Assembly (NCBI GenBank): GCA_963713795.1
Contig: CAVQNC010000009.1
Span: 13,978-77,977 of the forward strand
Length of the DNA: 64,000 nt
Source of the DNA: an uncultured Chloroflexia bacterium
GTDB taxonomy: Bacteria; Chloroflexota; Limnocylindria; Limnocylindrales; CSP1-4
Direction of reading: 5' to 3'
Part shown: positions 22,893 through 53,319 of the stretch, one piece after another
Layout of the letters: each line of letters starts with the position of its first letter
How positions within the stretch are numbered: position 1 is the first letter of the stretch
Translations under genes and position numbers: made by a program
The notes under the pieces: model-generated
Databases searched by the model: none
What the model saw: the letters and a program-made list of their open reading frames with translations, nothing else
Told to the model about the DNA's origin: nothing

Positions 22893-24227
22893 ATGCTCGA
22901 TCAGATCAGCCTGGCGACGGCACGGCGCTTTCTGGCCATCCGCCACCTGCTGGCGCCTCCGCGCGCTTTGCCCGCCGCGACGGAGAGCGTCCTGGCCGTA
23001 GTGGACCGGCTGGGCTCGCTCCAGTTCGACCCGCTCGAGGTGGCCGGCCGCAACCACGACCTCGTCCTGGCGGCCCGGATCGGCGGCTACCATCGCGAGC
23101 TCACCGACGAACTCCTCTACGGCCGCCGCCTGCTATTCGAGGCCTACAACAAGTCGCTCAACCTGCTGCCGACACGCGAGCTGCCCTACTACCGGATCAC
23201 ATGGACACAACTGGGGGCCGGCATGGCGGGCGGGCTGCTGGCCGAACAGGCCGGCCTTGCGGAGAAGCTGCTGGCGACGATAGCGGCCGAGGGTCCCAGG
23301 AGTTCGGCCGACTTCGAGCGGTCCGGGGCGATCGCCTGGTGGTGGGGGCCGACGTCGGCCGTTCGAGCGGTGCTCGAGGCGCTGTCTGTCTCCGGTCGCC
23401 TTGGGCTGGCGCGACGCGAGGGCAACCGCCGCTACTACGACCTGATCGAGCGACTCTTCCCATCCGACCTTTTGGCCGTCCGCGTCCCGGAACGCGAGCA
23501 GCTGCGCCACAAGCTCCTTTCGCGTTTCCGCGCCCACGGCCTGCTCGGGGCGTCCGGAGGCGGCGAACTCTGGCTAGGCATCGGACCGGCCGCGCTGCGG
23601 ACCGAGCTTCGAGCCGAACTCGTGGATCGAGGCGAGATCGTGCCCGTCGTGGTCGAGGGTCTGCGCGGCCGGCGCTTCGTCGTGGCGGACGAGATGCCGC
23701 TGCTCGCCCAGGCGGAACGGGAGATCGCGGCCGAGGCGTCGGGGGCCGTCTCTCGCCCGGGAGACGGCCCCGCGGGCGCCGCCTTCCTGCCTCCGCTCGA
23801 CCCGATGATGTGGGACCGCGAGGCTCTCGGACCGCTCTACGACTTCGATTACCGCTGGGAGGTCTACACGCCCGCGGCCAAACGCCGCTGGGGTTATTAC
23901 GTCCTGCCGATCCTATTCGGCGATCGGCTGGTCGGTCGCATCGAACCGCGCATCGACCGCCCGGCCAAGGCCGTGCGAATCCTGGGCCTGGCCTGGGAGT
24001 CCGGCTTCGACCCGATGGAGGCGCCGGGGTTCGTCGCCGCGTTCTCGGCGGCTCTCAACTCGTACCTGGCCTTCGGCAGTGCCGGGAAACTGCTGGCATC
24101 GCCGGAACCCGTGAATCGACCCCTCTTCCGTGCCCTGGCCCGCGAAGTGCCCGTCGGTCGCCCCCGTGAAGCGTCGCGATCGCCCCGGGCCCGTGTGGCC
24201 GCGGACCGGCGATACGCTAGCAAGTAG
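22893..24227 (+). CDS. YcaQ/AlkZ-like winged-helix protein (DUF1006 family, putative crosslink DNA glycosylase)
   Basis: N-terminal LGSLQFDPLEV..RNHDLVL..R and C-terminal RWGYYVLPILFGDRLVGRIEPRIDR blocks characteristic of the family. Confidence 0.75.
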   Translation: MLDQISLATARRFLAIRHLLAPPRALPAATESVLAVVDRLGSLQFDPLEVAGRNHDLVLAARIGGYHRELTDELLYGRRLLFEAYNKSLNLLPTRELPYYRITWTQLGAGMAGGLLAEQAGLAEKLLATIAAEGPRSSADFERSGAIAWWWGPTSAVRAVLEALSVSGRLGLARREGNRRYYDLIERLFPSDLLAVRVPEREQLRHKLLSRFRAHGLLGASGGGELWLGIGPAALRTELRAELVDRGEIVPVVVEGLRGRRFVVADEMPLLAQAEREIAAEASGAVSRPGDGPAGAAFLPPLDPMMWDREALGPLYDFDYRWEVYTPAAKRRWGYYVLPILFGDRLVGRIEPRIDRPAKAVRILGLAWESGFDPMEAPGFVAAFSAALNSYLAFGSAGKLLASPEPVNRPLFRALAREVPVGRPREASRSPRARVAADRRYASK

Positions 24228-24427: not shown

Positions 24428-24901
24428 ATGAAGCCCATCGCGGTCGGCAGCGACGACGCCGGTTTCGAGCTCAAGGAGGAGTTGAGGCGTCACCTCGAGG
24501 CGCAGGGCTACGAGGTCACCGACTACGGCTGCCACTCCGCGGAACCGGTTGACTACCCGGACGTAGCCATCGAGGTCGCGACCGCCGTCGCGGCCGGCCG
24601 CCATGACCGCGCTGTCCTCGTCTGCGGCACCGGCATCGGCATGGCCATCGCCGCCAACAAAGTCCCGGGCGTCTACGCGGCCAACGCCCACGACCCCTAC
24701 TCAGCCGCGCGGGCCCGAATGTCGAACAACGCCCAGGTGCTCTCCCTGGGGGCGCGGGTGGTCGGAACGGAGCTGGCCAGGACTCTCGTCGACGTGTGGC
24801 TCAAGGCCGAGTTCGCCGGCGGCGGGTCCCTGCGCAAGGTTCAGAAGATCCAGGCGGCCGAGCGGCACCCGGAGGCTCTCTCGCCGGAGGATTCGCGGTG
24901 A
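24428..24901 (+). CDS. rpiB: Ribose-5-phosphate isomerase B family (RpiB/LacAB) sugar-phosphate isomerase
   Basis: ATG at 24428 after GGAAGGAGG. MKPIAVGSDDAGFELKE, VLVCGTGIGMAIAANK (catalytic Cys), NAQVLSLGARV. Confidence 0.9.
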   Translation: MKPIAVGSDDAGFELKEELRRHLEAQGYEVTDYGCHSAEPVDYPDVAIEVATAVAAGRHDRAVLVCGTGIGMAIAANKVPGVYAANAHDPYSAARARMSNNAQVLSLGARVVGTELARTLVDVWLKAEFAGGGSLRKVQKIQAAERHPEALSPEDSR

Positions 24902-25647
24902 AGCGCCCGTTGATCGGCACGAGCTGGAAGATGAACCTGGCGCCCAGCAAGACCGTCGAGTACTGCGCCGCGCTCAGGCCGCTGGTCGAGGCGATCGACG
25001 ATCGCACGCTCTTCGTGCTGCCGTCCTACCCATCGCTGTCCGCGGCCGGCCGCGTCCTCGCCGGCAGCAACGTTGCCTGGGGCGCTCAGGACGTTCACCC
25101 GGCCGAAGAGGGCCCCCATACCGGCGACGTTTCCGCCTCGATGCTCGCGGACCTGGGTTGCACCTTCGTAGAGGTCGGCCATCACGAACGTCGCCGCGAT
25201 CACCACGAGGACGACGACCTGATCGCCGCGAAGGTCTCCGCCATCCAACGCTGGGGCATGACCGCCATCCTGTGCGTCGGCGAGGTGTCCAGGACCACGC
25301 CCGAGGCGGCCGAGGAGCACGTCCTGGGCCAGCTGCGCTTCGTCAACCGCTTCGATCCCGCGAAACTGATCGTCGCCTACGAGCCGGCCTGGGCCATCGG
25401 CGCGGGATCCGAGCGCGCGCCGGCGGCGTGGATAGGGACGATCCACGGGGCGATCCACCGGCGTTTGTCGGACCTCGCGGCCGGGGGGGACGAAGTCCCG
25501 GTGATCTACGGCGGCAGCGTCGACGCCGCGGGCGCCGGCGCGGTCCTCGCCTGTCCCGGCGTGGATGGGCTCTTCGTGGGCCGCTACGCGCTCACCCCCC
25601 AGGGTTTCGCGGAGATTGCCGGAACTCCAATTCGGCCCAACGCCTGA
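24898..25647 (+). CDS. Triosephosphate-isomerase-family paralog (non-canonical)
   Basis: The GTG start overlaps the rpiB stop (GTGA). SWKMN replaces canonical NWK(L/M)N, GHHERR replaces GHSERR, AYEPAWAIGAG retains the catalytic Glu, and GRYAL replaces GGASL. Confidence 0.85.
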   Translation: MKRPLIGTSWKMNLAPSKTVEYCAALRPLVEAIDDRTLFVLPSYPSLSAAGRVLAGSNVAWGAQDVHPAEEGPHTGDVSASMLADLGCTFVEVGHHERRRDHHEDDDLIAAKVSAIQRWGMTAILCVGEVSRTTPEAAEEHVLGQLRFVNRFDPAKLIVAYEPAWAIGAGSERAPAAWIGTIHGAIHRRLSDLAAGGDEVPVIYGGSVDAAGAGAVLACPGVDGLFVGRYALTPQGFAEIAGTPIRPNA

Positions 25648-25987: not shown

Positions 25988-27070
25988 ATGATGAAGATCC
26001 TGGTTGTCGGGGACTCCTACTGCCGCTGGCGAGCGCTCGGCGCGTCGATCGATCGCCTGGCCGAGAGCCACGAAGTCACCTGCTTCGACCTGGTCGACGA
26101 GCCCGGCTGGCGCCCGACGACGCCCTCCGAGCTCAAGATCCGCGAGCTGCTGGGGAGCCCGCGCCAGGTCATCGAGCGGCTCGACGGGCACGAAGTGCTG
26201 ATAGTCCAGGGCGCGCCGGTGACCGACGCGGTCATGGACGCGAGCCCTGGCCTCAAGCTCGTGTGCGTCGCCCGCGGCGGTCCAGTGAACGTCGACATCG
26301 CCGCGGCCACGGATCGGGGCATCGCCGTCGTCACGACTCCAGGCAAGAACGCCCAGGCCGTCGCGGAGCTGACCATCGCCTTCATGGTGATGCTCGCTCG
26401 GCGCCTGCCGGAAGTCACGCGCTTCCTGGAGGGAGGGGGCGAGCTGGCCCGCGACAACTACGAAGGGGCGAAGTGGATGGGCCACGACCTGGACGGGCAC
26501 GTCCTGGGCCTGATCGGCTATGGGCAGGTTGGCCATCGCGTCGCCGGGATCGCCAGGGCGATGGGGATGCGGGTCGTCGTCTTCGATCCGTTCGTTCCGG
26601 CCGCCCGCATCGAGGCCGACGGCGCCGAGCCGGTCGGGCTTGACACTCTGCTCACGACCGCCGACTACGTCTCGATCCACGCCCGCGCGACGGCCGACAA
26701 CAAGGGCCTGCTGGGGCGCGCCCAGATCGAGCGCATGAAGCAGGGCGCCTGCCTGATCAACACCGCCCGTGACACGCTCGTCGACGAGGACGCCGTCTAC
26801 GATGCGCTCCGCTCCGGACACCTCGGCGGAGGGGCCTTCGACGTGGTGCGCCTGCCGGACCTGTCGATACCGCCGGAACTCGGCCGCCGCCACCGGCTCT
26901 TCGACGCCCCGAACGTGGTCCTCGCCACTCACATCGGCGGCGCCACTTACGAGACGATGGGCCATGGCGGCGAAATGGCCGCCGCCGAGATCGGCCGGCT
27001 GGCGGCCGGCGAGCCGTTCGTGAACCTGGCCAACCCGGCCGTGCTTGGGAAGGTGGGGAACCATGCCTGA
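25988..27070 (+). CDS. D-isomer-specific 2-hydroxyacid dehydrogenase family protein
   Basis: GLIGYGQVGHRVA NAD motif, ARD...VDEDA...THIGG (Arg/Glu/His triad pattern). Its stop overlaps the next gene's start by 8 nt. Confidence 0.85.
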   Translation: MMKILVVGDSYCRWRALGASIDRLAESHEVTCFDLVDEPGWRPTTPSELKIRELLGSPRQVIERLDGHEVLIVQGAPVTDAVMDASPGLKLVCVARGGPVNVDIAAATDRGIAVVTTPGKNAQAVAELTIAFMVMLARRLPEVTRFLEGGGELARDNYEGAKWMGHDLDGHVLGLIGYGQVGHRVAGIARAMGMRVVVFDPFVPAARIEADGAEPVGLDTLLTTADYVSIHARATADNKGLLGRAQIERMKQGACLINTARDTLVDEDAVYDALRSGHLGGGAFDVVRLPDLSIPPELGRRHRLFDAPNVVLATHIGGATYETMGHGGEMAAAEIGRLAAGEPFVNLANPAVLGKVGNHA

Positions 27071-28625
27071 TGCGCACGTGATGGCAATCGATCTCGGAAC
27101 GGGCAGCTGCCGCGCCCTGATCTTCGATCGGGACGGCCATCAGGTGGCGATGGCGCAGCGCGAGTGGTCGCACCCGCCACTGCCGGGCGCGCCCGGCTCG
27201 CAGCAGTTCGAGACGGCCCGCAACTGGCCTCTTATCTGCGAGTGCATCCGGGAGGCGCTGGCGAAGAGCGGCCTGGGGGCGGGCGCCATAAAGGGCGTCT
27301 CGAGCACCGCCATGCGCGAGGGCATGGTCCTTTACGACGCTGCGGGCGCCGAGATCTGGGCCTGCCCGAACGTCGACTCTCGCGCCGGCGACGAGGCCGC
27401 CGAGCTCATAGAGGCCGGACAGGCGCGGAAGATCTTCGACACCGGCGGCGACTGGGTCTCGATCACCTCGCCGGCCAGGTTCCTCTGGATCAAGCGGCAC
27501 CAGCCGGACGTCTTCGGCCGCATCGCCCACATGGGCATGCTCAGCGACTGGGTCCTGACGAAGCTGTCGGGCGAGTACGCGACCGACCCGTCGATCGGGG
27601 CAAGCTCCGGCCTGTTCGACCTGGCCAGGGCGGACTGGTCGGCCGAGCTGATCGCGATGATCGGCCTCGACCCGAGCATCTTCCCGCAGGTTCGCCAGCC
27701 CGGCAGCGTGCTCGGCGGAGTGACGGCGAGAGCGGCCGCCGAGACCGGACTCGCCGCCGGGACGCCGGTCGTCGTGGGCGGTGCCGACACTCAGCTCGGA
27801 CTGCTCGGCATCGGCCGGACCACGCCGAAGGCCTTCACGCTCGTGGGCGGCAGTTTCTGGCAGAGCACGGTATTGGTCGACAGGCCACTCATCGACCCGG
27901 AAGCGCGCCTCCGCTCTCTCTGCCATGTCCTGCCCGGCCAGTGGATGGTCGAGGGCATCGGCTTCTACTGCGGCCTGACTCTACGCTGGTTCCGCGACGC
28001 CTTCTGCGACCTCGAGAAGGCCTGCGCCGCCGAGCGCGGCGTGGATCCGTTCGTGGTCATGGAAGAGGAGGCTGCCTCCGTCCCGCCGGGCTCCAACGGC
28101 GTCCTGCCTATCTTCGGCAACATCATGAACGCCAAGCGCTGGGTTCAGGCCTCGCCGTCGTTCGTCCAGTTCGACATCGACAACCCGAGCACCTCGGGCC
28201 GCAAAGAATGTATCCGGGCCATCGAGGAGAGCGCCGCCTACATAGCCCTCGGGCACCTCCGGATCATCGAGAGCCTGACCGGCTACAGGTTCGACGAGAT
28301 CGTCTTCACCGGCGGCGGCTCGAAGGGCCAGCTCTGGCCGCAGGTCATCGCCGACGTACTTGGCGTCGCCGTCAAGGTGCCCCAGGTCAAGGAATCGACC
28401 GCCCTGGGGGCCGCGCTCTGCGCCGGACTCGGCGCCGGCCTGTACACGGACCTTGCCTCGACGGCCGCCCAGGTCGTCCGCTTCGAGCGCACCTTCCAGC
28501 CCGACTCCGCCGCCCACGCCGCCTACGCGAGCCTCTTCGAACAGTGGCAGACCGTTTACGGCCGATTCCTGGAAATGGGCGACGCGGGCCTGCTCCGCCC
28601 GCTCTGGAAGCCCGCCGGAGCCTGA
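27063..28625 (+). CDS. lsrK: FGGY-family kinase, autoinducer-2 kinase (LsrK)-like
   Basis: Collinear with my recollection of enterobacterial LsrK along the whole length (MAIDLGTGSCRALIFD, AQREW.H, NW.L.CEC.R.AL, SMREGMVLYD..G.EIWAC.NVD.RA, GTPVVVGG.D.QLG.LG.G, GLT.RWFRDAFC, F.GGGSKG.LW.QI.ADV.G..V..P.VKE.TALG.A, LWKPAG at the C-terminus). Confidence 0.8.
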   Translation: MPDAHVMAIDLGTGSCRALIFDRDGHQVAMAQREWSHPPLPGAPGSQQFETARNWPLICECIREALAKSGLGAGAIKGVSSTAMREGMVLYDAAGAEIWACPNVDSRAGDEAAELIEAGQARKIFDTGGDWVSITSPARFLWIKRHQPDVFGRIAHMGMLSDWVLTKLSGEYATDPSIGASSGLFDLARADWSAELIAMIGLDPSIFPQVRQPGSVLGGVTARAAAETGLAAGTPVVVGGADTQLGLLGIGRTTPKAFTLVGGSFWQSTVLVDRPLIDPEARLRSLCHVLPGQWMVEGIGFYCGLTLRWFRDAFCDLEKACAAERGVDPFVVMEEEAASVPPGSNGVLPIFGNIMNAKRWVQASPSFVQFDIDNPSTSGRKECIRAIEESAAYIALGHLRIIESLTGYRFDEIVFTGGGSKGQLWPQVIADVLGVAVKVPQVKESTALGAALCAGLGAGLYTDLASTAAQVVRFERTFQPDSAAHAAYASLFEQWQTVYGRFLEMGDAGLLRPLWKPAGA

Positions 28626-28703
28626 GGCGGCTGGACACCCCGCCAACCCCACCACAGCGAGCAATCGCCGGTCCCGTCCAGGGACGGCAGAAAGAGGAGC
28701 CAG

Positions 28704-29600
28704 ATGCCAGAAGCCGACTTCACCGAGGAGAAGAACTTCCACGAAGACATCCCGCAGCGCAACAGCGCCTTCTTCCTGAAGGGCGCCGGCGCCTACGACT
28801 GGGGCATGCAGAACCGGCTGGCCCGCGTCTTCAACCCGGACAGCGGCAAGACCGTCATGCTGGCCATCGACCACGGCTACTTCCAGGGCCCGACGACGGG
28901 GCTGGAGCGCGTCGACGTCAACATCCTGCCGCTCGTCCCCTACACGGACGCTCTCTTCTGCACCCGCGGCATCCTGCGCAGCGTCGTCCCGGCGGCCACC
29001 CGGACGCCGAGCGTGCTGCGGGCCAGCGGCGGCCCCTCGATCCTCAAGGAGCTCTCCAACGAGGAGATCGCCATGGATCTCGAGGATGCGGTCCGCCTGA
29101 ACAGCTGCGGGGTAGGCGTCCAGGTCTTCGTCGGCGGTGAGTACGAGACCCAGACGATCCACAACATGACCCGTCTGGTCGACGCCGGGTATCGCGTCGG
29201 GCTGCCCGTCCTGGGCGTTACGGCCGTCGGCAAGGACATGGTGCGCGACGCCAAATACTTCCGCCTTGCGACCCGGATCTGCGCCGAACTGGGCGCCCAG
29301 ATGGTCAAGACCTACTACGTCCCCGAGGGCTTCGAGACGGTCACCGCCTCCTGCCCTGTGCCGATCGTCATGGCCGGCGGGAAGAAGCTGCCCGAGCTGG
29401 AAGCCCTGACGATGGCCTACCGCGCCGTCCAGGAGGGCGCCGCGGGCGTGGACATGGGCCGGAACATCTTCCAGAGCGAGTCGCCGATCGCAATGATCCA
29501 GGCCGTCCGCAAGGTCGTCCACGAGGCCATGAAGCCCGAGCATGCGCTCGAGCTGTTCAAGACGCTCAAGTCCGAGTTCAAGCAGCCCGTCGGAGCCTGA
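28704..29600 (+). CDS. lsrF: Class-I aldolase-fold enzyme, LsrF (3-hydroxy-5-phosphonooxypentane-2,4-dione thiolase)-like
   Basis: Long blocks identical to my recollection of E. coli LsrF: [58 protein letters not shown] (Schiff-base Lys context), [25 protein letters not shown]. Confidence 0.85.
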
Positions 29601-29609
29601 GGACCGGCC

Positions 29610-30338
29610 GTGGCTACCACCGCACACCTGCCGTTCCTCGACGGCCGCGCGCACCTGACGATCGGCATCAATACGGCGGACCTGGCCAACCTGGGCGCCG
29701 CCGTCAACATTCTCGAGGATGCCCGGGCCGAGATGATCCACATCGACGTCATGGACGGCGTTTTCTGCCCCGCCACGACGGTCGGCCCGCCATTCATCAA
29801 GGCCATTCGCACGCCGCTTCTCAAGGACGCCCACCTGATGATCGTCGACCCTGTCGAGAAGGTGGCCGATTACGTCGCCGCCGGCGCGGACGTCATCACT
29901 TTCCATGTCGAGTCGACCCGGCATCCGCACCGGGTCCTGCAGGTCCTGGGCAAGGCGGAGAACGTCAACGACCCCGCTCGCGGGATCATTCGCGGCGTGG
30001 CCATCAATCCCGGGACGCCGGTCTCGGCGCTCGAGCCGCTCCTCGACGAGCTCGAATACGTGGTCATCCTGGCCGTCAATCCGGGCTGGGGTGGCCAGAA
30101 GTTCATCGAATCAACCGGACGACGGCTGGCCGGAGCCGCCCAGCTCATCCGTCGCTCCGGCCGCCCGATCCTGCTCGGCGTCGACGGCGGCATCACGAAG
30201 GACAACATCGCCCGGGTGGCCGCCATGGGGCCCAACCTGATCGTCACGGGCAGCGCCGTCTTCGACGGCAAGACTCCGGCCGAGAACGCCCGCTTCATGC
30301 TCGACCAGGTCCAGGGCGGAAACGCGATCACCCCGTAG
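29610..30338 (+). CDS. rpe: Ribulose-phosphate 3-epimerase family protein (Rpe/LsrE-like, divergent)
   Basis: IHIDVMDG, DAHLM, VNPGWGGQKF, VDGGI blocks. MDGVFCPATT replaces the canonical MD.H(F/Y)VPNLT. GTG start 9 nt after the lsrF-like stop. Confidence 0.8.
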   Translation: MATTAHLPFLDGRAHLTIGINTADLANLGAAVNILEDARAEMIHIDVMDGVFCPATTVGPPFIKAIRTPLLKDAHLMIVDPVEKVADYVAAGADVITFHVESTRHPHRVLQVLGKAENVNDPARGIIRGVAINPGTPVSALEPLLDELEYVVILAVNPGWGGQKFIESTGRRLAGAAQLIRRSGRPILLGVDGGITKDNIARVAAMGPNLIVTGSAVFDGKTPAENARFMLDQVQGGNAITP

Positions 30339-30443: not shown

Positions 30444-31214
30444 TCAGAGCTCGGCGTTGACGATAAATCCCCCGTCGACGAGAAGCGTGGCGCAGGTCAC
30501 GTAGGTCGCGTCGTCGGAGAGAAGATAGGTGATCGCGCCCGCCATCTCCTCCGGCTCACCGGGGCGGTGGATGGCGATCCGGTCGACGTAGTACTTCCAG
30601 ACCTCGGGCGCCGCGTCGAACATGGGCGCGCTCATGTTGGTCTTGATCCAGCCCGGCTCGACGGCGTTGACCCGGATCCCGTGCTCTCCCAGGTTGCAGC
30701 CGAGAGCCTTGGCCAGCATCGAGATGGCGCCCTTGGTGCCGCAGTATGCGGTCTGGTAGGGCGCACCAACGTGGGCCGAGATCGAGCTGGTGCAGCAGAT
30801 GGCGCCGCCGTGGCCCTCCTTGATCATCTGCTTGGCGCCCTCCGTGCAGACCACCCAGGTCCCGCGGACGTTGGTCTCCATGAGGTTGTTGAAGTCCTCG
30901 AGGCTCGTCTCGTCCCACTTCATGAAGGGGTTGATTGCCGCGTTGGAGACGACGTAGTCGAGCCGGCCGCCGCGCTCGGCGACCTCGTGGACCATGCGGA
31001 TGACCTGCTCCGGGTCGCGCATGTCGGCCACGACGGGAAAGCCGTCTCCGCCTGCCTCCTTGATCCGGCGCATCGTCTCGGTCGGGTCGCCGGTGGGCCG
31101 CTGGTTCACACCCACCAGCGCACCTTCCGCGGCCAGGCGCACCGCCGTCGCCTGCCCGATTCCGTTCGTGGCTCCGGTGACCAGGGCGACCTTGCCGACG
31201 AAACGCTTTTCCAT
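30444..31214 (-). CDS. Short-chain dehydrogenase/reductase (SDR)
   Basis: VTGATNGIG cofactor motif, S...YCGTK catalytic pattern, 256 aa. Confidence 0.9.
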   Translation of the reverse strand: MEKRFVGKVALVTGATNGIGQATAVRLAAEGALVGVNQRPTGDPTETMRRIKEAGGDGFPVVADMRDPEQVIRMVHEVAERGGRLDYVVSNAAINPFMKWDETSLEDFNNLMETNVRGTWVVCTEGAKQMIKEGHGGAICCTSSISAHVGAPYQTAYCGTKGAISMLAKALGCNLGEHGIRVNAVEPGWIKTNMSAPMFDAAPEVWKYYVDRIAIHRPGEPEEMAGAITYLLSDDATYVTCATLLVDGGFIVNAEL

Positions 31215-31284: not shown

Positions 31285-32064
31285 TCAGTGCATGCCGCGG
31301 CCGCCCGCGACGATGAGCAGTTCGCCGGTGATGAAGGCGGCCTCGTCCGAGGCCAGAAAGACGGCGGACGCGGCGACGTCGCCCGGCGTGCCCCAGCGCT
31401 TCAGGGCCGTCTCGTCGAGGATTCGCTGCTGCGTAGCCGGGTCGATCTCCTCGACCATGTCGGTCCTGATCCAGCCGGGGCAGATAGCGTTGACCCTGAT
31501 CTGCGGCCCCAGGGCCAGGGCCATCGCCTTCGTCAGGCCGTTCAGGCCGGCCTTCGACACTACGTACTCGGTGAAGCGCATCGCCGACGGGTGGTAGAGG
31601 CCCGAGTTGGACGACATGTTGATGATGGAGCCGGAGCCCTGGCGGATCATCACTGGGGCCACCGCCTTGGAGCAGAGGTAGGCTCCTTTGAGGTTGACGT
31701 CGATCGTCAGATCCCAGTCCTCCTCTGTCGTCTCCAGCACTCCCTTCGGGATCATCACGCCGGCGTTGTTGACCAGGATGTCGACTCGGCCGAAACGATC
31801 GAGCGCCTGATCGACCAGGCGCCTGACGTCCGCGCTACGCGAGACGTCGGCCCCGACGGCGAAGGCTGATCCGCCGACTGCCTCTATGCCGGCGACGACC
31901 GCGGCCGCGTTGTTCGCCCCCTGGCTGAAGTTCACTACCACGGAGGCTCCACTGGCCGCGAACCGCTCGGCGACCGCGCGGCCGATGCCCCGCGACGCGC
32001 CGGTGACTATCGCAACTTTGCCCGCCAGTTGCCCTTCGGCCATCGCCGTCTCCTCGTGATCCAT
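31285..32064 (-). CDS. Short-chain dehydrogenase/reductase (SDR, FabG-like)
   Basis: VTGASRGIG, NNAG, S...YVVSK motifs. The start may be the Met at 32043 instead. Confidence 0.9.
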   Translation of the reverse strand: MDHEETAMAEGQLAGKVAIVTGASRGIGRAVAERFAASGASVVVNFSQGANNAAAVVAGIEAVGGSAFAVGADVSRSADVRRLVDQALDRFGRVDILVNNAGVMIPKGVLETTEEDWDLTIDVNLKGAYLCSKAVAPVMIRQGSGSIINMSSNSGLYHPSAMRFTEYVVSKAGLNGLTKAMALALGPQIRVNAICPGWIRTDMVEEIDPATQQRILDETALKRWGTPGDVAASAVFLASDEAAFITGELLIVAGGRGMH

Positions 32065-32219: not shown

Positions 32220-32729
32220 CTACTTCGCGGCCGGCGGGTACTGGCGGACCGGCGTCAGTTCGATGGCATGCCCGCTGCCCGACTCCGCAACGAAGTGCGC
32301 ATCGTCCGACGTGTCGAGGTAGTAGAACTCGATGGTGTCGCCGATCCGGCCGCCCATCGACATCTCGTAACCGGCATCGCCGAAGCGCTTCTTGAAGGCG
32401 TCCGACTCTTCCTGACTGTGGCTCATGAGGGCAATGTGCTGGACGCCCTCGCCGTACTTGGCCAAATGCTCCTTGTAGATGGAGTCTCCATCGAGAGGCT
32501 GGATCAGTTCGAAGATCAGACCGGGCTGGACCTCGCACTCAGCCCCGATCATCGAGTAGTCCGCGGGCTTGCCGTGGAGGTGCTGGTGATGGAGCTTCGG
32601 CGGCACGTGCTCGTAGACGTTCCAGGGGCCCCACCCGAACATCTCGTGGTAGGTCTTCATCGCCTTGTCGATGTCGTTGACGACGACCGCGATCTGGCTG
32701 ATCCGGTACGGATGCTCGGGCGCTTTCAT
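32220..32729 (-). CDS. VOC-family (glyoxalase/bleomycin-resistance/dioxygenase fold) protein
   Basis: 169 aa. N-terminal ISQIAVVVNDIDKAMKTYHEMFG and a later GVQHIAL block are typical of paired beta-alpha-beta-beta-beta modules. Confidence 0.7.
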   Translation of the reverse strand: MKAPEHPYRISQIAVVVNDIDKAMKTYHEMFGWGPWNVYEHVPPKLHHQHLHGKPADYSMIGAECEVQPGLIFELIQPLDGDSIYKEHLAKYGEGVQHIALMSHSQEESDAFKKRFGDAGYEMSMGGRIGDTIEFYYLDTSDDAHFVAESGSGHAIELTPVRQYPPAAK

Positions 32730-33002: not shown

Positions 33003-33971
33003 ATGGCGACCCGGCACTCTTCACGAGCGACCCCGGCGGCCGGCGGCCGGGTCACGGATCTGCTGGTAGAGGTGGCCCGACGGTTCTACCTCGGGAGCGA
33101 GACCCAGGTCGAGATCGCGCGCGACCTCGGGCTGGATCCGTCGACGGTCTCGCGTTATCTGAAACGCGCCCGCGACGAGGGCGTGGTTCGAGTCGAGATC
33201 AGGCCGCCGCTGCGCCGCAACGTGGACCTGGGCCGGCAGCTCGCCGATGCCTTCGGCCTGTCACGCGTCGTCGTTGCCACGACCGACGAAGAGGGCGATC
33301 TGTCATGCCTGGCGGAGGTCGCGGCAGACTACATCGGAACGCTTCTCCGCAAGGGCATGCGAGTGGGACTCGGCTGGGGTTCCACGCTGTCGGCCACCGT
33401 GGGATGCCTGGAGCCGGGCGCCGTTTCCGACCTCATCATCACCCAGCTGGCCGGTGGCCTGAGCGACCCCGTGCCGGGCATCCAGGGTCATGAACTGGCC
33501 CGGCACCTGGCCAGCCTGTACCCGGGCAGCCTGGTCCATTACCTGCACGCACCGTCGATCGTGGACTCGCCGGCCATCAAGGAGGCGATCCTGAGCGACT
33601 CGTCGGTCCAGGCCGCCCTGGGGTTGGCGGCGAAGAGCGAACTGGCCCTGGTCGGGATCGGCGAGATAAGCCCGGACGCCACTCTCTTGCGGTCATCACA
33701 CATGACACGCACCGATCTCGAGCTCCTGGTTGCCGACGGCGTCGTGGGCAGCATGAACGGACGTTTCTTCGCCCGCGACGGGAAGCCGGCCGGCGACCTC
33801 GACGACCGGACCATCGCCATCGAATGGTCCGAGCTGGAGGCGATTCCGATTGTCGTAGCCGTCGCGGCCGGATCGAGCAAGGTGGACGCGATACTCGGCG
33901 GACTGAAGTCCGGTGCCGTCGACGTCCTGATTACCGACGAAACGACCGCGGCCGCGCTCGCGGAGCGATAG
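33003..33971 (+). CDS. SorC/DeoR-type sugar-binding transcriptional regulator (LsrR/EryD class)
   Basis: N-terminal HTH (VARRFYLGSETQVEIARDLGLDPSTVSRYLKRARDEGVV) plus a C-terminal sugar-phosphate-binding domain ending in VLITDE.TA..L. Confidence 0.85.
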   Translation: MATRHSSRATPAAGGRVTDLLVEVARRFYLGSETQVEIARDLGLDPSTVSRYLKRARDEGVVRVEIRPPLRRNVDLGRQLADAFGLSRVVVATTDEEGDLSCLAEVAADYIGTLLRKGMRVGLGWGSTLSATVGCLEPGAVSDLIITQLAGGLSDPVPGIQGHELARHLASLYPGSLVHYLHAPSIVDSPAIKEAILSDSSVQAALGLAAKSELALVGIGEISPDATLLRSSHMTRTDLELLVADGVVGSMNGRFFARDGKPAGDLDDRTIAIEWSELEAIPIVVAVAAGSSKVDAILGGLKSGAVDVLITDETTAAALAER

Positions 33972-34847
33972 CTAGAGCTGGCCGGCCCGCGAACCCAGGC
34001 CGTGCTGGGCGACCTCCCGCTTCATGAAGGCGAGACCCTGGCGGGCAACCTGCTCCTGGCTGTCGAAGAGCGGGCGCCAGATCTTGGTGGCGGCGGTGAG
34101 GTTCGGCAGCGCATCTCCAAACGACTCGACCGTCAGCCAGCCGTCGTAGCCGATGTCGCGCAGCGCCTCGAAGGTCTCGTCCCAGGCCACGTGGCCGCTT
34201 CCCGGAACGCCGCGGTCGTTCTCCGAGATGTGGACGTAGCCGATCCTCGAACCCGCGGCCTTGATCGCCTCGCCGGGATGCTTCTCCTCGATGTTGGAGT
34301 GGAAGGTGTCCACGTGGATGCGGCAGTTGGGCTGCCCCACGTCGTCGATGAATTGCGACGCCTGGGCCAGAGTGTTGAGGAGATACAGCTCGAATCGGTT
34401 CACGACCTCTTCCGTGAGAATCAGGCCGGACAGGGCCGCGTACTGGGCGACGCTGCGGATGTGGTCGACGCTTCGCTGCCATTCGTCGTCCGTGGGAGCA
34501 CGGCCGCTGAATACGCCAAGGGCGATCTGGTGGGGTCCCGCGAGTACCGTCGCGCCGACGACCTGGCAGCAGTCCACGACCTGCATCATGTGGTCGTAGG
34601 CGTTCCGGCGGATCGCAGGATCGGGGCTGACCGGATCGAACTCCGGGGCTATGACGTGGTTGGCCGTGCGCTCAAGCCCCAGGTCGTCGAGATGCCGGCG
34701 CCAACGCGCCCACTTGGCCGGGTCGAGGTCGAACATGGGTACTTCGACCCCGTCGTAGCCCATCTCCTTGGCAGACTCGAGCACGGGCAGGAGGCTTTCC
34801 TCCATGTCGTCGGCCCAGAGCATCAGGTTTATGCCGTACTTGAGCAT
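33972..34847 (-). CDS. Sugar phosphate isomerase/epimerase (xylose-isomerase-like TIM barrel)
   Basis: MLKYGINLMLW...GYDGVE, HVDTFH, HISENDRG, GYDGWLTVE motifs. Its stop codon abuts the SorC-type gene stop (TAG|CTA at 33969-33974). Confidence 0.85.
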   Translation of the reverse strand: MLKYGINLMLWADDMEESLLPVLESAKEMGYDGVEVPMFDLDPAKWARWRRHLDDLGLERTANHVIAPEFDPVSPDPAIRRNAYDHMMQVVDCCQVVGATVLAGPHQIALGVFSGRAPTDDEWQRSVDHIRSVAQYAALSGLILTEEVVNRFELYLLNTLAQASQFIDDVGQPNCRIHVDTFHSNIEEKHPGEAIKAAGSRIGYVHISENDRGVPGSGHVAWDETFEALRDIGYDGWLTVESFGDALPNLTAATKIWRPLFDSQEQVARQGLAFMKREVAQHGLGSRAGQL

Positions 34848-39413: not shown

Positions 39414-40601
39414 TCAGCGGCCCTGCTCGAGCATGGTCAGCAGCCCGCCGTGGAGCGGGCCGCGCGGCATGATCGGCCAGATGTCCACTACGCGATCGTT
39501 CTCGACAACGTGGTAGGCGTCGAAGTAGTTGACGGCGAATGGCGTGTAGCCGAGATGGAAGTCGACCACGTCGCCCACCTTGAGCGGGCAGGCGGGGTCG
39601 GCGTCGTAGGTCGCGTGCTCCTCGTCGAACCGGTATGGCTTCAAGTCCTCGAATCCGAAGATACGAGGGTATGAAGGGATGTTGCCGACGTCGGCCGCCC
39701 CAAAGGTCTTCTTTCCCAGGTTGAGGACGACCCGATCCTTGCGCCGGCTGATGACCGTCACCACCGCCGAAGTCGCCTTCTTGAAACTCGGCTCCATCAG
39801 AAAGTGGAAGTCGTCCATGGCCGCGTAGGAGCCCAGCTGGAGCTCGGTTATGCGCGGGTCCGCCCCGGTCCAGAAGGCCGTGGCCGTCCCGGCCGCCGAT
39901 AGGATCGGGCAGGCCACGCCGTTGGCCTCGAGCAGGTCCGCGACCTCGACGAAGTACCGCATCGCCGCGGCCTGCTTCTGATGCCGTTTCTCGTTGTCCA
40001 TCTCCATCGAACAATGGCCCTCGTAGCCCGAGAGCCCTTCCATGATCAGGCCAGGCAGCTCCCGGACGCGCCTGGCGACTGCCAGGGCCTCCTCGGGAGA
40101 ATCGACGCCGGCCCGGTGCATGCCTGTATCGACCTCGACCAGGACCCCGATCGTGGTGCCGGCGTCGACTGCGGCCGCCGACAGCGCCTCGGCATCCCCT
40201 GGGTCATCGACGTTTACGATGACCCGCGCCTCGCGGGCCAGGAGGGCAGCGGCGCGACGCTTCTCCGGAGTGACGAGCTCGTTGGCGATGAGGACGTCGG
40301 CGGCGCCCGCGCGAACCATGACGATCGCCTCCCAGATCGTCGCCGCGCACAGGCCGAAGGCACCGTGCTCGAGCTGCATCCGGGCGATGTGCGGGCTCTT
40401 GTGGTTCTTGACGTGGCCCCTGAGACGGGCATGAAGACCGGGCAGCCGCGACTGCATGTACTCGAGATTAGTTCGCAGGATGTTCTTGTCGACCACCAGG
40501 GCCGGCGTCACCACGTCGTACTTGCTGCCGCCGATGGCGGACCCGTACATTTCGCGAACACGCTGGTGAGCGTCGACGATGAGCGGCGCCGGCTCTCGCA
40601 T
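39414..40601 (-). CDS. D-threonine aldolase / DSD1-like PLP enzyme (alanine-racemase N-terminal fold), paralog 1
   Basis: ATG at 40601 after GGAAGGAG. TPALVVD...LRGHVKNHKSPHIA (PLP-Lys context) plus a C-terminal D-serine-dehydratase-like beta domain. The track ORF extension to 41237 is an artefact. Confidence 0.85.
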   Translation of the reverse strand: MREPAPLIVDAHQRVREMYGSAIGGSKYDVVTPALVVDKNILRTNLEYMQSRLPGLHARLRGHVKNHKSPHIARMQLEHGAFGLCAATIWEAIVMVRAGAADVLIANELVTPEKRRAAALLAREARVIVNVDDPGDAEALSAAAVDAGTTIGVLVEVDTGMHRAGVDSPEEALAVARRVRELPGLIMEGLSGYEGHCSMEMDNEKRHQKQAAAMRYFVEVADLLEANGVACPILSAAGTATAFWTGADPRITELQLGSYAAMDDFHFLMEPSFKKATSAVVTVISRRKDRVVLNLGKKTFGAADVGNIPSYPRIFGFEDLKPYRFDEEHATYDADPACPLKVGDVVDFHLGYTPFAVNYFDAYHVVENDRVVDIWPIMPRGPLHGGLLTMLEQGR

Positions 40602-40660
40602 CCGATTCACTCCTTCCGGCCTCACGGCGGGGCATCTGACGGGACGCGGGTCGCTCGGCC

Positions 40661-41863
40661 CTATTCTCCGCGCTCGAGCATGTCGAGAAGCCAGCGCGAC
40701 TCCGGGCCCCGGGGCATGACCGGCCAGACGTCGGTCACGCGGCCGTTCTCCATCACGTGGTACGCCTCGAAGTACCCGATCGCGTTCGGCGTGTAGTTGC
40801 AGCGGATCTCGAACTTGTCGCCGACCTTGACCGGATCCGACGGATCCACGAGGAAGATCGAATGCTCCTCGTCGAAACGGAAAGGCTTGAGGCCGTCCGG
40901 GGCAAGGACGCCCTGAGACGCGCCGACGGTCTTGTTGCCGGCGTCGAGGACGATCCGGTCGGATCGGCGGCTGATCACCGTGGCGAGAACGGTCACCGCC
41001 CAGCCGAACCTGGGATCCAGGCCGCGGTGGTGTCCGTCCATGGTGGCGTATGACCCGGGCTGGATCTCCGTAATACCCGGGTAGCGCGACGTGATTTCCC
41101 ACGTCCCGGTGCCCGCGGCAGTCACGATCTCGCAAGGGAATCCGTTGGCTCCGAGATGGTCGGCGACGCCCGTCAGGAAGGCCATGGCCACCTTGGCCAT
41201 GGCGCGGCGCTTGGCCTCGTCGAACTCGAGCGAGCAATGGCCTTCATAGCCGGTCAGACCGACGAGCTTGAGCCCGGGCGAAGCCGCGATCTTGCGGGCC
41301 AGGACGAGCGCCTCCTCGGCCGAAGCCACGCCGCAACGATGCATGCCTTCGTCCACGTCGATGAAGACCCCGATCGTGCTTCCGGCGGCCGTCGCGGCCC
41401 TTGAGAGTTCCTCGATCTGGCCCGAGTCGTCGACCGCGACCTTGACGTCAGCCTCGCGGGCGAGCAGAGCCAGGGCGCGAGTCTTCTCCGGGCCCACGAC
41501 TTCGTTGATCACGAAGACGTCGTTGATGCCGGCTCGAGCCATGACGATGGCCTCCCAGACCGTCGCGCAGCCGACGCCGATGGCTCCGTACTCCACCTCC
41601 AGCCGGGCGATGTGGGGGCTCTTGTGAACCTTCACGTGGGCCCGCAACGTCGTCGGAACACCCTGCATGTGCTCGGCCATGAAGCCCAGGTTTGCCTTGA
41701 GGACGCCGAGATCGAGCAGGAGGGCGGGAGTAGTCAGATCGTCGCGGCCCCGGCCCATGGCCGGGGCGTACAGGTCGCGGACCTGCTGATGGCGCGACTT
41801 GATCAAGGACGCCGGCTCCGGCATTTGCTGGCTCTGCACGGTATTCACGTCTTCCTTTTCCAT
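40661..41863 (-). CDS. D-threonine aldolase / DSD1-like PLP enzyme, paralog 2
   Basis: TPALLLD...LRAHVKVHKSPHIA. Collinear with paralog 1 throughout. Start is ATG 41863, with a later Met possible. Confidence 0.85.
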   Translation of the reverse strand: MEKEDVNTVQSQQMPEPASLIKSRHQQVRDLYAPAMGRGRDDLTTPALLLDLGVLKANLGFMAEHMQGVPTTLRAHVKVHKSPHIARLEVEYGAIGVGCATVWEAIVMARAGINDVFVINEVVGPEKTRALALLAREADVKVAVDDSGQIEELSRAATAAGSTIGVFIDVDEGMHRCGVASAEEALVLARKIAASPGLKLVGLTGYEGHCSLEFDEAKRRAMAKVAMAFLTGVADHLGANGFPCEIVTAAGTGTWEITSRYPGITEIQPGSYATMDGHHRGLDPRFGWAVTVLATVISRRSDRIVLDAGNKTVGASQGVLAPDGLKPFRFDEEHSIFLVDPSDPVKVGDKFEIRCNYTPNAIGYFEAYHVMENGRVTDVWPVMPRGPESRWLLDMLERGE

Positions 41864-41895
41864 CGACGGTACTTGACGACAGCTATCTCGGGTAT

Positions 41896-42981
41896 TTACT
41901 GAGAGCTCCCCCGGGCCGTGATGGGCCACTGGTCGACTATCTCGCCGCCGCGAGTGACCCACACGTGGTCGTGGAGGTTGAACGTGGTCCTGATCTGGCC
42001 CGGAGTGAGATCAACCCCGCTGCCCAGTGCGGGCAGCGGATCGTCCATGATCAAGGTCGTGTGCTCGTCGCTGACCATGATTTCCTTCACGGCCAACCCG
42101 ACCGGGATTGGAGCTCCGTATTCCATCCCAACGACGCGTCTGCCGACGTCCGTGACGATTCGGCCGGGGTGGCGGCTGATGACGGTCCCCCTCAGCACCG
42201 CGGCGCATCGGAACGGCAGATCCATGATCAGCAGCTCCGGCTCCATCAGGGCGTATACGCCAGCCTGGATCTCGGTGATCGTCGGGTCGGCCAGCGCTTC
42301 TCTGAGTGTCGACGTGCCGGCAGCCGAAACGACTTCCGGCGGGAAGCCGGCTTCGCGCAACGCCGAGGCCGCTTCCGAAAGGGCTCCGTAGGCGCGCCGG
42401 ATCTTGCCGCTACGCTCCTTGTCGGTTATTCGGAGACGACCTTCATAGCCCATGACCCCGCGCAGGCGGAGACCCGGCAGGCGCTCGATCTTGTGGGCCA
42501 GGGCGATGGCGTCTCGAGGCGATGCCACGCCGCAGCGGTGCAGGAGGATATCCATGTCGATCAGGACCCCGACGGTCACGCCTGCCGCGTCGGCCTCGCG
42601 CGAGAGAACCTCGACGGGTGCGGCGTCGTCGACGGCAACCGAAACCAGGGCCCGGTGGGCCAGAGCGACCAGGCGGGCGATCTTGCGCGGATCCACGACC
42701 TCGTTGGCCACGAAGACGTCCTCGAGCCCTGCGTCGACCATGGCTTCGGCCTCGCCCACCGTGGCGCAGGTGAGACCCGACACGGAAGGGCCCAGCTGGC
42801 GCCTGGCCAGCTCGGGCGTCCGATGAGTCTTGACATGGGGCCGAAGCAGCTTGCCTGTGCCGCGCAGCAAGGTGGCCATTGCGGCGACGTTGGCCTCGAA
42901 GACGCCGAGATCGACGATGAGCGCGGGGGTTGACAGAGATGGTGGGGATTTGGGTTCTATCGGCGACGATGCGGGCGTCAT
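41896..42981 (-). CDS. D-threonine aldolase / DSD1-like PLP enzyme, paralog 3 (more divergent)
   Basis: TPALIVD...LRPHVKTHRTPELA. Same two-domain layout, 361 aa. Confidence 0.8.
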   Translation of the reverse strand: MTPASSPIEPKSPPSLSTPALIVDLGVFEANVAAMATLLRGTGKLLRPHVKTHRTPELARRQLGPSVSGLTCATVGEAEAMVDAGLEDVFVANEVVDPRKIARLVALAHRALVSVAVDDAAPVEVLSREADAAGVTVGVLIDMDILLHRCGVASPRDAIALAHKIERLPGLRLRGVMGYEGRLRITDKERSGKIRRAYGALSEAASALREAGFPPEVVSAAGTSTLREALADPTITEIQAGVYALMEPELLIMDLPFRCAAVLRGTVISRHPGRIVTDVGRRVVGMEYGAPIPVGLAVKEIMVSDEHTTLIMDDPLPALGSGVDLTPGQIRTTFNLHDHVWVTRGGEIVDQWPITARGSSQ

Positions 42982-51788: not shown

Positions 51789-52105
51789 GAGGAGGTCGAG
51801 ACGGGCCCTTCGCATTGATCGCGATCCACCTGCGCAGATACGTGCAATGTCATGCAACATCTTGACGCGGCGGCGTACCGGTACCTATCCTCTGTTCTCG
51901 GACGCCGATAGACCGCTTCGCCGATCCGGTCGAGATGGCCGGGCCGATCCTCTACGTCTGCTTCGAAGACGCCACGTTCCAGACGGGCGGCCTCAAGGTC
52001 GATGACGGCGGTGATTCGGTCAGGCTGCCGGTACGCGGCGCGCTGGACGAGCCGTTGGTCCCGGGCAGAGTCCGCTGGTCCAGGCCAGCCCCAGGAGGCC
52101 AAGTC

Positions 52106-53062: not shown

Positions 53063-53319
53063 TGGAGGCAGCGCGGGAGTCCCGCCCGAAGCGACGGAGG
53101 AGGACGCCTGACACGAACACGGCTTGATTCCGGGTCTTGCCGAGAGCCGACTGGTACCGCGCCGGAGAGTCGGTCGAGGAGCGGCCCGCGACGGTCGATG
53201 AAATCGAAGCCCTGAAGGGCGAGTGTCTACCCGCCGCCGGGCGACGGGTAGACACAGAAAGTCCAACGCTCGAGCACGTTGCCAGCGACCCGCTCGAGCC
53301 CTTCCGCGGAGGTGTAACC

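Follow-up and report, generated by a model that had tools for sequence, protein, structure and literature searches.

In a stretch of 64,000 nt (hereafter the window; contig 9, CAVQNC010000009.1, positions 13,978 to 77,977 of the forward strand) from the 3.7-Mb assembly GCA_963713795.1 of an uncultured soil bacterium of the Chloroflexota, the genes for a 2-hydroxyacid dehydrogenase (HADH), an LsrK-like kinase, an LsrF orthologue and an Rpe-like epimerase form one tight, real and conserved operon. LsrK and LsrF are known from the Lsr system of enterobacteria, where LsrK phosphorylates 4,5-dihydroxy-2,3-pentanedione (DPD), i.e. autoinducer-2 (AI-2), LsrG isomerises the resulting phosphate ester (P-DPD) to 3-hydroxy-2,4-pentanedione 5-phosphate (P-HPD), and LsrF acts thereafter. 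In E. coli, the LsrF reaction converts P-HPD and coenzyme A (CoA) to dihydroxyacetone phosphate (DHAP) and acetyl-CoA (PMC8016206). Judged from sequence comparisons, we see about an even chance that these genes make up the core of a conserved catabolic module of the cytoplasm, with LsrF thiolysis as its last step and without a role in quorum-signal uptake.

The operon

The four genes are arranged as follows.
25988-27070, plus strand: D-isomer-specific 2-hydroxyacid dehydrogenase (HADH)
27063-28625, plus strand: LsrK-like FGGY kinase, starting with the ATG at 27063 and thus overlapping the HADH stop by 8 nt
28704-29600, plus strand: LsrF orthologue with DeoC/LacD fold, a class-I aldolase fold
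29610-30338, plus strand: Rpe-like epimerase with a GTG start, 9 nt after the LsrF gene

All four frames are intact, with a GC content at third codon positions (GC3) of 0.88-0.93 in a window of ~0.68 GC, and the overlap and short gaps are typical of translational coupling. An earlier reading of this DNA that relied on its letters only (the sequence-only reading) had described a tightly packed operon, and its coordinates and spacings were correct when the frames were rechecked. The nearest public relative is a metagenome-assembled genome (MAG) of Candidatus Limnocylindrales from the SPRUCE peat site (locus L042), whose LsrF is 94% identical.

Related loci and their gene content

For comparison with the window, the 80 LsrF loci nearest to its own were taken from GTDB species genomes. 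They span Acidobacteriota, Chloroflexota, Actinomycetota, Planctomycetota, Verrucomicrobiota, Alphaproteobacteria, Desulfobacterota and others, and LsrB, LsrD or LsrG was found in none of the 80. About 17 loci from Chloroflexota and Actinomycetota (Acidimicrobiia), including one from the window's own family (G365), share the order VOC-HADH-LsrK-LsrF-Rpe and are here called type A. VOC stands for a glyoxalase-fold protein. This order is kept across the two phyla at 50-90% protein identity and usually runs on into genes for a fold-type-III pyridoxal phosphate (PLP) enzyme, a short-chain dehydrogenase (SDR), a cyclase-family protein, an APC permease and a DUF4432 protein. In locus L121, the type-A genes all lie on one strand. 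The survey of genome contexts that the sequence-only reading had suggested places the operon at the core of a conserved catabolic cluster of 10-12 genes. Among the 15 type-A loci with long flanks, the partners were counted as follows.
PLP enzyme: 15 of 15, the most constant partner
VOC protein: 12 of 15, directly upstream of HADH
DUF4432 protein: 10 of 15
cyclase-like protein: 9 of 15
SorC regulator: 8 of 15
RpiB and a paralog of triosephosphate isomerase (TIM): 7 of 15
APC permease: 7 of 15

HADH adjoins the LsrK-like gene in every type-A locus in which that gene was detected (15 loci). Most other loci are of a second kind, type B, in which lsrF and rpe share an operon with just one further gene, for a 700-aa class-II-aldolase-like/SDR fusion. 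In the type-B loci examined, the flanks are housekeeping genes such as ruvABC, and a few have E1/E2 dehydrogenase genes upstream. In four MAGs of Planctomycetota, Latescibacterota and Verrucomicrobiota (L044, L063, L096, L105), E1-alpha and E1-beta genes, in part with E2, adjoin lsrF-rpe; they are of the 2-oxoacid- or acetoin-dehydrogenase type, and as the window has its own E1/RLP/E2 operon ~20 kb downstream, a link of LsrF to a thiamine/lipoate enzyme recurs across phyla.

Further contexts, in sugar clusters unrelated to AI-2, came from cultured references, which were taken from a plasmid collection. In Sagittula and Shinella, an LsrF with 58-63% identity to that of the window is encoded together with a sugar ABC transporter, a gene similar to glycerol-3-phosphate (G3P) dehydrogenase and a class-II-aldolase-like protein (polyol type); the FGGY kinase of these clusters is not LsrK-like (27% identity), and no specific NCBIfam model was matched there that would name the polyol. 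In Bacteroidota, the arrangement is DhaK-DhaL-LsrF, and no homology was found between the VOC protein of the window and the small protein encoded upstream of DhaK in Parabacteroides. Across these contexts, LsrF thus recurs widely as an end-enzyme, and the enzymes that feed it are interchangeable.

Could the four genes be neighbours by accident, either as members of unrelated pathways or as the decaying remnant of a horizontal acquisition? Such an origin would agree with the patchy distribution, as an LsrF of at least 72% identity was found in 3 of 400 other Chloroflexota genomes searched and in none of six congeneric genomes, and a sample of 30 genomes from the family yielded the LsrK-like kinase in 3. 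However, the frames are intact and of high GC3, their spacing is that of translationally coupled genes, and the synteny conserved in two phyla makes an incidental adjacency unlikely, so that we regard this explanation as highly improbable.

The LsrF orthologue

With 498 bits, LsrF far exceeds the cut-off of 297 of the equivalog model for P-HPD thiolase (NCBIfam NF006081), whereas its next-best NCBIfam matches, two ADH synthase models, reach 176 and 164 bits. The sequence-only reading had noted long blocks of identity with the enterobacterial proteins, and this was borne out: identity to E. coli K-12 LsrF is 64% over 285 aa, including the VKTYY context of the Schiff-base lysine, and identity of the kinase to LsrK is 45% over 518 aa. 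The catalytic and ligand residues of E. coli LsrF have been assigned to Asp57, His58, Lys203, Tyr205, Gly226/227, Asp251, Met252, Gly253 and Arg254, and the enzyme has the fold and the catalytic set of DhnA/FbaB class-I aldolases (PMC2728841). In a pairwise alignment, all of these residues, including the Schiff-base Lys203, are kept in LsrF of the window. The DhnA/FbaB aldolases and the archaeal ADH synthase share the fold and the Schiff-base lysine with it, but their models score far below the LsrF model.

In a tree of 110 rows, the sequences of E. coli, Salmonella, the window, the polyol-type and DhaKL-type clusters and the environmental loci form one clade with a support of 100, outside of which fall Chloroflexota homologues of 44-54% identity and the genome's own DhnA-type paralog. 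The environmental part of the clade, which is far larger than the canonical one, has short branches with types A and B intermixed, and identities across phyla are 64-79%. Such short branches and identities argue for an unchanged reaction. The unconstrained tree places LsrF of the window among type-B sequences and away from most of type A. A mosaic origin of the window's lsrF was considered on this basis and dropped, as a single type-A clade was not rejected by the approximately unbiased (AU) test (p = 0.495), and we draw no claim from it.

An alternative on the side of the chemistry is that LsrF works here as a plain aldolase. The kinase would then phosphorylate a ketose (a deoxy-pentulose at C1, or a tetrulose), LsrF would split the product into DHAP and an aldehyde without CoA, and HADH and the SDRs would dispose of the aldehyde, comparable to the salvage of rhamnose or 5-deoxyribose. 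The class-I aldolase fold and catalytic set of LsrF would permit this (PMC2728841), and the FGGY kinases in the profile match list of the kinase include rhamnulo- and fuculokinases. In addition, LsrF stands beside a G3P-dehydrogenase-like gene and an FGGY kinase, or beside DhaKL, in clusters in which ketose 1-phosphates would be expected, and RhaD-like aldolase/SDR fusions accompany it in type-B loci. Such a fusion also speaks against the idea, as operons in which LsrF were a simple aldolase would have no need of another aldolase-like domain. Moreover, the identity to the proven thiolase is as high as 64-79%, Asp251 and all ligand residues are kept, and the core operon contains no aldehyde dehydrogenase. 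We therefore judge a CoA-independent aldol cleavage to be quite unlikely.

On another contig, on the minus strand (C20:105048-107385), a second FGGY kinase gene adjoins one for a DhnA-type class-I aldolase; the two products are 31% and 33% identical to the kinase and LsrF of the window, respectively, and this aldolase falls outside the LsrF clade.

The LsrK-like kinase and the dehydrogenase

The kinase scores 624 bits on the NCBIfam model for AI-2 kinase (NF008187, cut-off 528), followed by XylB with 216 bits. In a tree of 28 rows, the type-A kinases form a clade of their own (100/99), which is sister to the canonical LsrK clade (100/99) with E. coli, Salmonella, S. meliloti, Lacticaseibacillus, Deinococcus and Bacillus. 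Both clades are joined by a long branch (100/100), and the window kinase thus stands away from other FGGY kinases without being placed within the canonical clade. As judged from this tree, the kinase is the closest relative of LsrK, yet a distinct lineage. Phylogeny, which the sequence-only reading had named as a check on both proteins, therefore gives a divided answer, with LsrF inside the LsrF clade and the kinase as a sister outside the canonical LsrK clade. For LsrK itself, there is no DPD-bound structure, and soaking failed (PMC5983913).

A small cupin-domain gene lies directly 3' of canonical lsrK in Salmonella (L122), Lacticaseibacillus (L127) and Deinococcus (L129), and in Deinococcus lsrK and the cupin gene stand alone without other lsr genes.

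HADH matches Pfam 2-Hacid_dh_C with 149 bits. Its best NCBIfam match is the model for 3-phosphoglycerate dehydrogenase (PGDH) with 206 bits, which is below the cut-off of 454, and its best PDB match is the phosphoglycerate dehydrogenase 1wwk with 147 bits. By these similarities, HADH is closest to the short 3-phosphoglycerate dehydrogenases.

Importer, LsrG and LuxS

As the sequence-only reading had noted, the window contains neither lsrACDB nor an LsrG gene: tblastn with E. coli LsrA, LsrC, LsrD, LsrB and LsrG gave no match in the 64 kb, and the E. coli Lsr proteins as a whole match only the kinase, LsrF and a SorC regulator there. The LsrB receptor and the LsrACD importer were found neither in the window nor in the rest of the genome nor in any of the 80 related loci, and no LuxS was found in the genome. 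A search of the whole genome, which the sequence-only reading had suggested as a check, detected one look-alike with A-C-D-B gene order (C3:396900-407000, locus L008). This is a complete L-rhamnose locus, flanked by genes for rhamnose mutarotase (rhaM), rhamnulose-1-phosphate aldolase (rhaD), rhamnose isomerase (rhaI) and rhamnulokinase (rhaB), and its binding protein reaches 324 bits on the RhaS model as compared to 155 bits on the LsrB model, the cut-off of which is 384. An inositol-3-phosphate synthase gene follows the L-rhamnose genes in this locus.

The claim that LsrG is absent holds for the window and does not hold for the genome. A protein of 233 aa with two tandem ABM domains is encoded on another contig (C15:135907-136605, locus L007:9905-10606), and its halves are 42-43% identical to E. 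coli LsrG. It obtains 174.6 bits on the LsrG model (cut-off 135), a threshold that is passed only by summing the two domains. The gene stands alone, with a luciferase-like monooxygenase gene on one side, an uncharacterised open reading frame on the other, and an ECF sigma factor gene two genes away. Among the 30 sampled genomes of the family, 14 carry an ABM gene, i.e. the three with the LsrK-like kinase and eleven others, and the presence in these eleven without the kinase suggests that the ABM protein is not a dedicated partner of the kinase. The ABM homologues of the family are mostly single-domain proteins, and most of the 14 genomes contain neither LsrK nor LsrF. The idea of a split lsr operon was rejected after this search of the 93.5%-complete genome, given the L-rhamnose identity of the look-alike and an ABM gene that is not co-distributed with the kinase.

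Does the operon nevertheless serve a genuine scavenging of AI-2, as in the first of the two alternatives offered by the sequence-only reading? In that case, DPD of external origin, or formed spontaneously, would enter by an unrecognised route and be phosphorylated by the kinase, the VOC protein, the TIM paralog or the tandem ABM protein would isomerise the product, LsrF would cleave it, and HADH and the Rpe-like protein would handle side products. The scores of kinase and LsrF beyond the NCBI cut-offs for AI-2 equivalogs and the unchanged active site of LsrF would be expected, and so would an LsrG-like ABM protein above its model's cut-off, present in all three family genomes with the kinase, and a VOC gene adjoining HADH in most of the long type-A loci. 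The lack of LuxS would be no obstacle, as DPD also arises non-enzymatically from ribulose-5-phosphate (PMC2443158). On the other hand, no importer of the LsrB/LsrACD type was found in the genome or the 80 loci, nor LuxS in the genome, and the kinase lies outside the canonical clade. The ABM gene is found in an unrelated context and in far more family genomes than the kinase, and it needs both domains for its score. Scavenging would also not account for the constant linkage of HADH, the Rpe-like protein, the PLP enzyme and the APC permease. For these reasons, we consider DPD scavenging rather unlikely, but it is an explanation that deserves to be taken seriously.

The Rpe-like protein

The sequence-only reading had termed the last gene Rpe/LsrE-like. 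It belongs to the Rpe family, whereas it is no LsrE equivalog, as it obtains 114 bits on the LsrE model NF010658 (cut-off 530) and is 34% identical to Salmonella LsrE. It scores 183 bits on the Rpe model TIGR01163 (cut-off 212.6) and 174.5 bits on the subfamily model NF004076 (cut-off 165), and the motifs HIDVMDG, AHLM, NPGWGGQ and VDGG with the His/Asp/His/Asp set are kept. Another Rpe copy, encoded on contig 24, is 39% identical to it. In a tree of 53 rows, the LsrF-linked Rpe copies form one clade (99) that excludes both housekeeping sequences, E. coli Rpe and the copy of contig 24; Salmonella LsrE lies inside this clade, but on a very long branch, and its placement is tentative. Such an Rpe-like gene is found next to lsrF in 48 of the 80 loci.

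A third Rpe-like sequence of the genome (C8:17559-18175) is present in two pieces in different frames (query residues 13-85 and 132-219), which suggests a frameshifted or broken copy.

Flanking genes in the window

The neighbours that the sequence-only reading had listed (two SDRs, a VOC-fold protein, a SorC regulator and a xylose-isomerase-fold protein) are present as described. With the other relevant genes of the window, they are as follows.
24428-24901, plus strand: RpiB-family sugar-phosphate isomerase (Pfam LacAB_rpiB, 187 bits; NCBIfam rpiB, 158 bits, cut-off 139)
24898-25647, plus strand: divergent TIM paralog (Pfam TIM, 202 bits; below every NCBIfam TIM equivalog cut-off)
30444-31214, minus strand: SDR 1 (Pfam adh_short_C2), most like sugar 1-dehydrogenases
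31285-32064, minus strand: SDR 2 (Pfam adh_short_C2; NF005559, a glucose 1-dehydrogenase subfamily, 250 bits, cut-off 215)
32220-32729, minus strand: VOC (glyoxalase-fold) protein (Pfam Glyoxalase_4; weak PDB matches to glyoxalase and methylmalonyl-CoA epimerase)
33003-33971, plus strand: SorC/DeoR-type sugar-binding regulator (Pfam Sugar-bind, 202 bits), divergent from the VOC-SDR operon
33972-34847, minus strand: xylose-isomerase-fold gene (Pfam AP_endonuc_2; D-psicose 3-epimerase model, 178 bits, cut-off 300)
39414-42981, minus strand: three tandem fold-type-III PLP enzymes (Pfam Ala_racemase_N and D-ser_dehydrat) of the D-Ser-dehydratase/D-Thr-aldolase/BhcC type
51935-54438, plus strand: cyclase-family (PF04199) hydrolase-like and DUF4432 proteins by Pfam, co-operonic with the core in relatives

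The RpiB protein reaches 152 bits on the model for D-erythrulose-4-phosphate isomerase and thereby misses its cut-off of 240. Two further RpiB paralogs are encoded on contigs C7 and C3, giving three in all, no RpiA was found in the genome, and a second TIM, encoded on C7, is 38% identical to the TIM paralog. As the genome has these other RpiB genes and a second TIM, the RpiB/TIM pair represents extra copies. The TIM paralog is translationally coupled to rpiB. It gave no match to an EryH-specific NCBIfam model, and it shares an intact set of catalytic Lys, His and Glu with its cluster orthologues. In type-A TIM paralogs, the first Asn of the catalytic site is replaced by Ser (mostly SWKMN, in some cases SSKMN or SLKM), and the GG of the phosphate gripper by GR. 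By these substitutions, the cluster-linked TIM paralogs (the window, L042, L066, L086, L101, L107, L040 and L120) are a coherent, undescribed TIM subfamily, and the protein is a candidate isomerase for a 1-substituted substrate that resembles a triose phosphate.

The VOC protein is encoded by a single gene in the genome. Across 13 orthologues, 64 residues are invariant, including His and Glu residues that possibly bind a metal, which makes this protein a candidate metal-dependent isomerase or epimerase in the place of LsrG. SDR 1 is matched best by the NCBIfam models for L-rhamnose 1-dehydrogenase and glucose 1-dehydrogenase, in either case under the cut-off, and copies of 72-75% identity follow rpe in Acidimicrobiia loci. 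The xylose-isomerase-fold protein is, by its matches, most like ketose 3-epimerases, and a homologue precedes lsrF in L120. The PLP enzymes reach 225 bits on the BhcC model, compared to a cut-off of 690. The regulator is 29% identical to E. coli LsrR and, with 115 bits, remains below the cut-off of the LsrR model (486).

A possible route from a C5 keto-sugar to DHAP and acetyl-CoA

Substrate and reaction order are inferred here from the gene content, and so are the parts played by HADH, the VOC protein, the TIM paralog and the Rpe-like protein and the action of LsrF as a thiolase in this organism. Whatever the surrounding operon acts on would give rise to an intracellular C5 keto-sugar, for which DPD, a 1-deoxy- or 5-deoxy-pentulose, or a pentulose are candidates. 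The LsrK-sister kinase would phosphorylate it, and the phosphate ester would then be converted to P-HPD or a very close analogue. In the last step, LsrF would form a Schiff base on its conserved lysine and transfer the acetyl group to CoA, which would yield DHAP and acetyl-CoA.

The entry into P-HPD could be achieved in two ways. In the first, P-DPD would undergo an enediol isomerisation catalyzed by the VOC protein and/or the TIM paralog, which thus would take the role of LsrG. In formal terms, P-DPD results when an acetyl group is placed on C1 of glyceraldehyde-3-phosphate, and P-HPD is the matching DHAP derivative. As the step from P-DPD to P-HPD would thereby resemble the shift between glyceraldehyde-3-phosphate and DHAP, a TIM paralog or a metal-dependent VOC protein could replace LsrG. 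By analogy, EryH of the erythritol pathway may be seen as a precedent for a TIM paralog that isomerises P-DPD. In the second way, the PGDH-like HADH would oxidise the hydroxyl group adjacent to either CH2OP or the methyl group, and the Rpe-like protein would set the configuration at C3. P-HPD is the C4-oxidised form of 1-deoxy-pentulose 5-phosphate as well as of 5-deoxy-ribulose 1-phosphate. As 3-phosphoglycerate dehydrogenases oxidise a CHOH group next to CH2OP, a PGDH-like HADH would be suited to such a dehydrogenation, and the need for this step would explain why HADH constantly stands beside the kinase. As to the source of the C5 compound, an imported amino compound is suggested by the constant PLP enzyme and by the APC permease.

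This proposal is close to the second alternative of the sequence-only reading, a phospho-ketose or diketone pathway derived from a polyol that has recruited the LsrK/LsrF chemistry. Such a pathway fits best with the cluster core, the sister position of the kinase, the lack of an Lsr transporter and LuxS, and the absence of LsrB, LsrD and LsrG from all 80 loci. Its derivation from a polyol is not supported, as the constant PLP enzyme and the frequent APC permease suggest an amino compound, and recruitment could have gone in either direction, considering the size of the environmental LsrF clade.

Several points weigh against a module that ends in LsrF thiolysis. The genome is a MAG-type assembly that is 93.5% complete, and absences are therefore no proof; most related loci, and all type-A relatives, come from MAGs as well, some with short contigs. 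Kinase and LsrF pass curated cut-offs of AI-2 families, the VOC protein and HADH are both conserved, which leaves the route of entry into P-HPD ambiguous, and 340 bp separate the rpiB-TIM pair from HADH, so that it may not be co-transcribed with the core. We also know of no chemistry that joins the PLP enzyme, the cyclase-like protein, DUF4432 and the APC permease to a C5 keto-sugar.

A more far-reaching idea would place the pair of LsrF and the Rpe-like protein at the core of an undescribed pathway, widespread in bacteria of soils and sediments, for the cleavage of pentulose 5-phosphate, or of a 1-deoxy or 1-substituted derivative, to DHAP and acetyl-CoA. It would use CoA, lose no carbon and correspond in function to phosphoketolase. 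The internal redox step would fall to a dehydrogenase, namely HADH in the operon described here and the SDR domain in the three-gene operon, and the AI-2-directed Lsr system would be a specialised offshoot and not the origin. We mention this as a speculation that is quite unlikely.

Comparison with known systems

With the Lsr systems of E. coli and Salmonella, the cluster shares the catalytic set of LsrF, a kinase of the LsrK branch and a nearby regulator of the SorC family. In Salmonella, the epimerase gene lsrE follows lsrG, and in the window a gene of the Rpe family likewise follows directly after the processing genes. The main differences are that the window has no ABC importer and no adjacent LsrG, that the genome has no detectable LuxS, that the kinase belongs to a sister clade and that the regulator is only distantly similar to LsrR. 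In addition, type-A clusters contain a PGDH-like dehydrogenase, a VOC protein, a PLP enzyme, often an APC permease, and the RpiB/TIM-paralog pair. The module resembles the cytoplasmic half of the Lsr pathway, but because the tests for receptor, importer and LsrR fail, it is not a member of the Lsr systems.

The Lsr-like (Ait) locus on pSymB of S. meliloti comprises lsrACDB, a SorC regulator, lsrK and an ABM gene after lsrK. A stand-alone class-II-aldolase-like protein of 416 aa takes the place of LsrF there, and the processing enzymes after the kinase are thus interchangeable. S. meliloti keeps the full importer, whereas the window has LsrF and no class-II-aldolase-like gene. Over 434 aa, the S. 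meliloti protein shows 36% identity to the type-B fusion, in the N-terminal part of about 430 residues.

The erythritol catabolism of Brucella and Rhizobium, reportedly described by Barbier et al. in 2014, is said to involve the FGGY kinase EryA, the dehydrogenase EryB, EryC, the TIM paralog EryH, the RpiB paralog EryI and the SorC regulator EryD. EryH reportedly shifts a carbonyl group next to CH2OP, a chemistry that the step from P-DPD to P-HPD would require, and the route is said to end in erythrose-4-phosphate without a C-C cleavage of the LsrF type. The window resembles this pathway in an FGGY kinase, a dehydrogenase that presumably acts on a phosphate ester, a xylose-isomerase fold, paralogs of TIM and RpiB, and a SorC regulator. 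It differs in that the dehydrogenase is of the D-2-hydroxyacid type and not a G3P dehydrogenase, and in that RpiB stays below the erythrulose-phosphate cut-off (152 compared to 240 bits).

The type-B operon and the DhaKL-LsrF modules contain members of the same LsrF clade, and type B also shares the LsrF-linked Rpe subfamily. Both are without an FGGY kinase and a PGDH-like dehydrogenase, whereas type A has both, embedded in a larger operon with PLP enzyme and permease genes. Full-text literature searches for LsrF or LsrK outside AI-2 turned up no description of such contexts.

Implications for AI-2 annotations

Thousands of environmental genes carry automatic names such as "autoinducer-2 kinase" or "AI-2 aldolase/thiolase", and in metagenomes more than 8000 LsrF clusters (E < 1e-30) are all machine-named as AI-2 enzymes. 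Such names can suggest that uncultured soil bacteria sense or quench AI-2, which for this large environmental clade is probably wrong. As the genes stand in catabolic operons without an importer, their AI-2 names should not be counted as quorum-sensing capacity. If the module indeed ends in LsrF thiolysis, it would represent an unrecognised route from a C5 keto-sugar to DHAP and acetyl-CoA, for which the VOC protein and the TIM paralog are natural, testable candidates to substitute for LsrG. The type-A context would also make sense of the long-unexplained lsrE of Salmonella and is relevant to the question of how the lsr operon came together.

Regulatory motifs and an adjacent gene

Scans for promoters and terminators gave nothing above background. 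The motif GGTTCGCGK occurs nine times in the window (3.0 expected), and one of 100 shuffles reached nine; a second motif, CAT..CATACT, is confined to the spacer between the VOC and SorC genes. Both are missing from the 340-bp leader of HADH, and the idea of a SorC operator common to the operons was dropped, as the motif counts are uninformative in this respect. Between glgX and the rpiB/TIM pair, the window contains a gene for an AlkZ-like DNA glycosylase (22893-24227; PF06224, 161 bits), which occupies the same position in L042.

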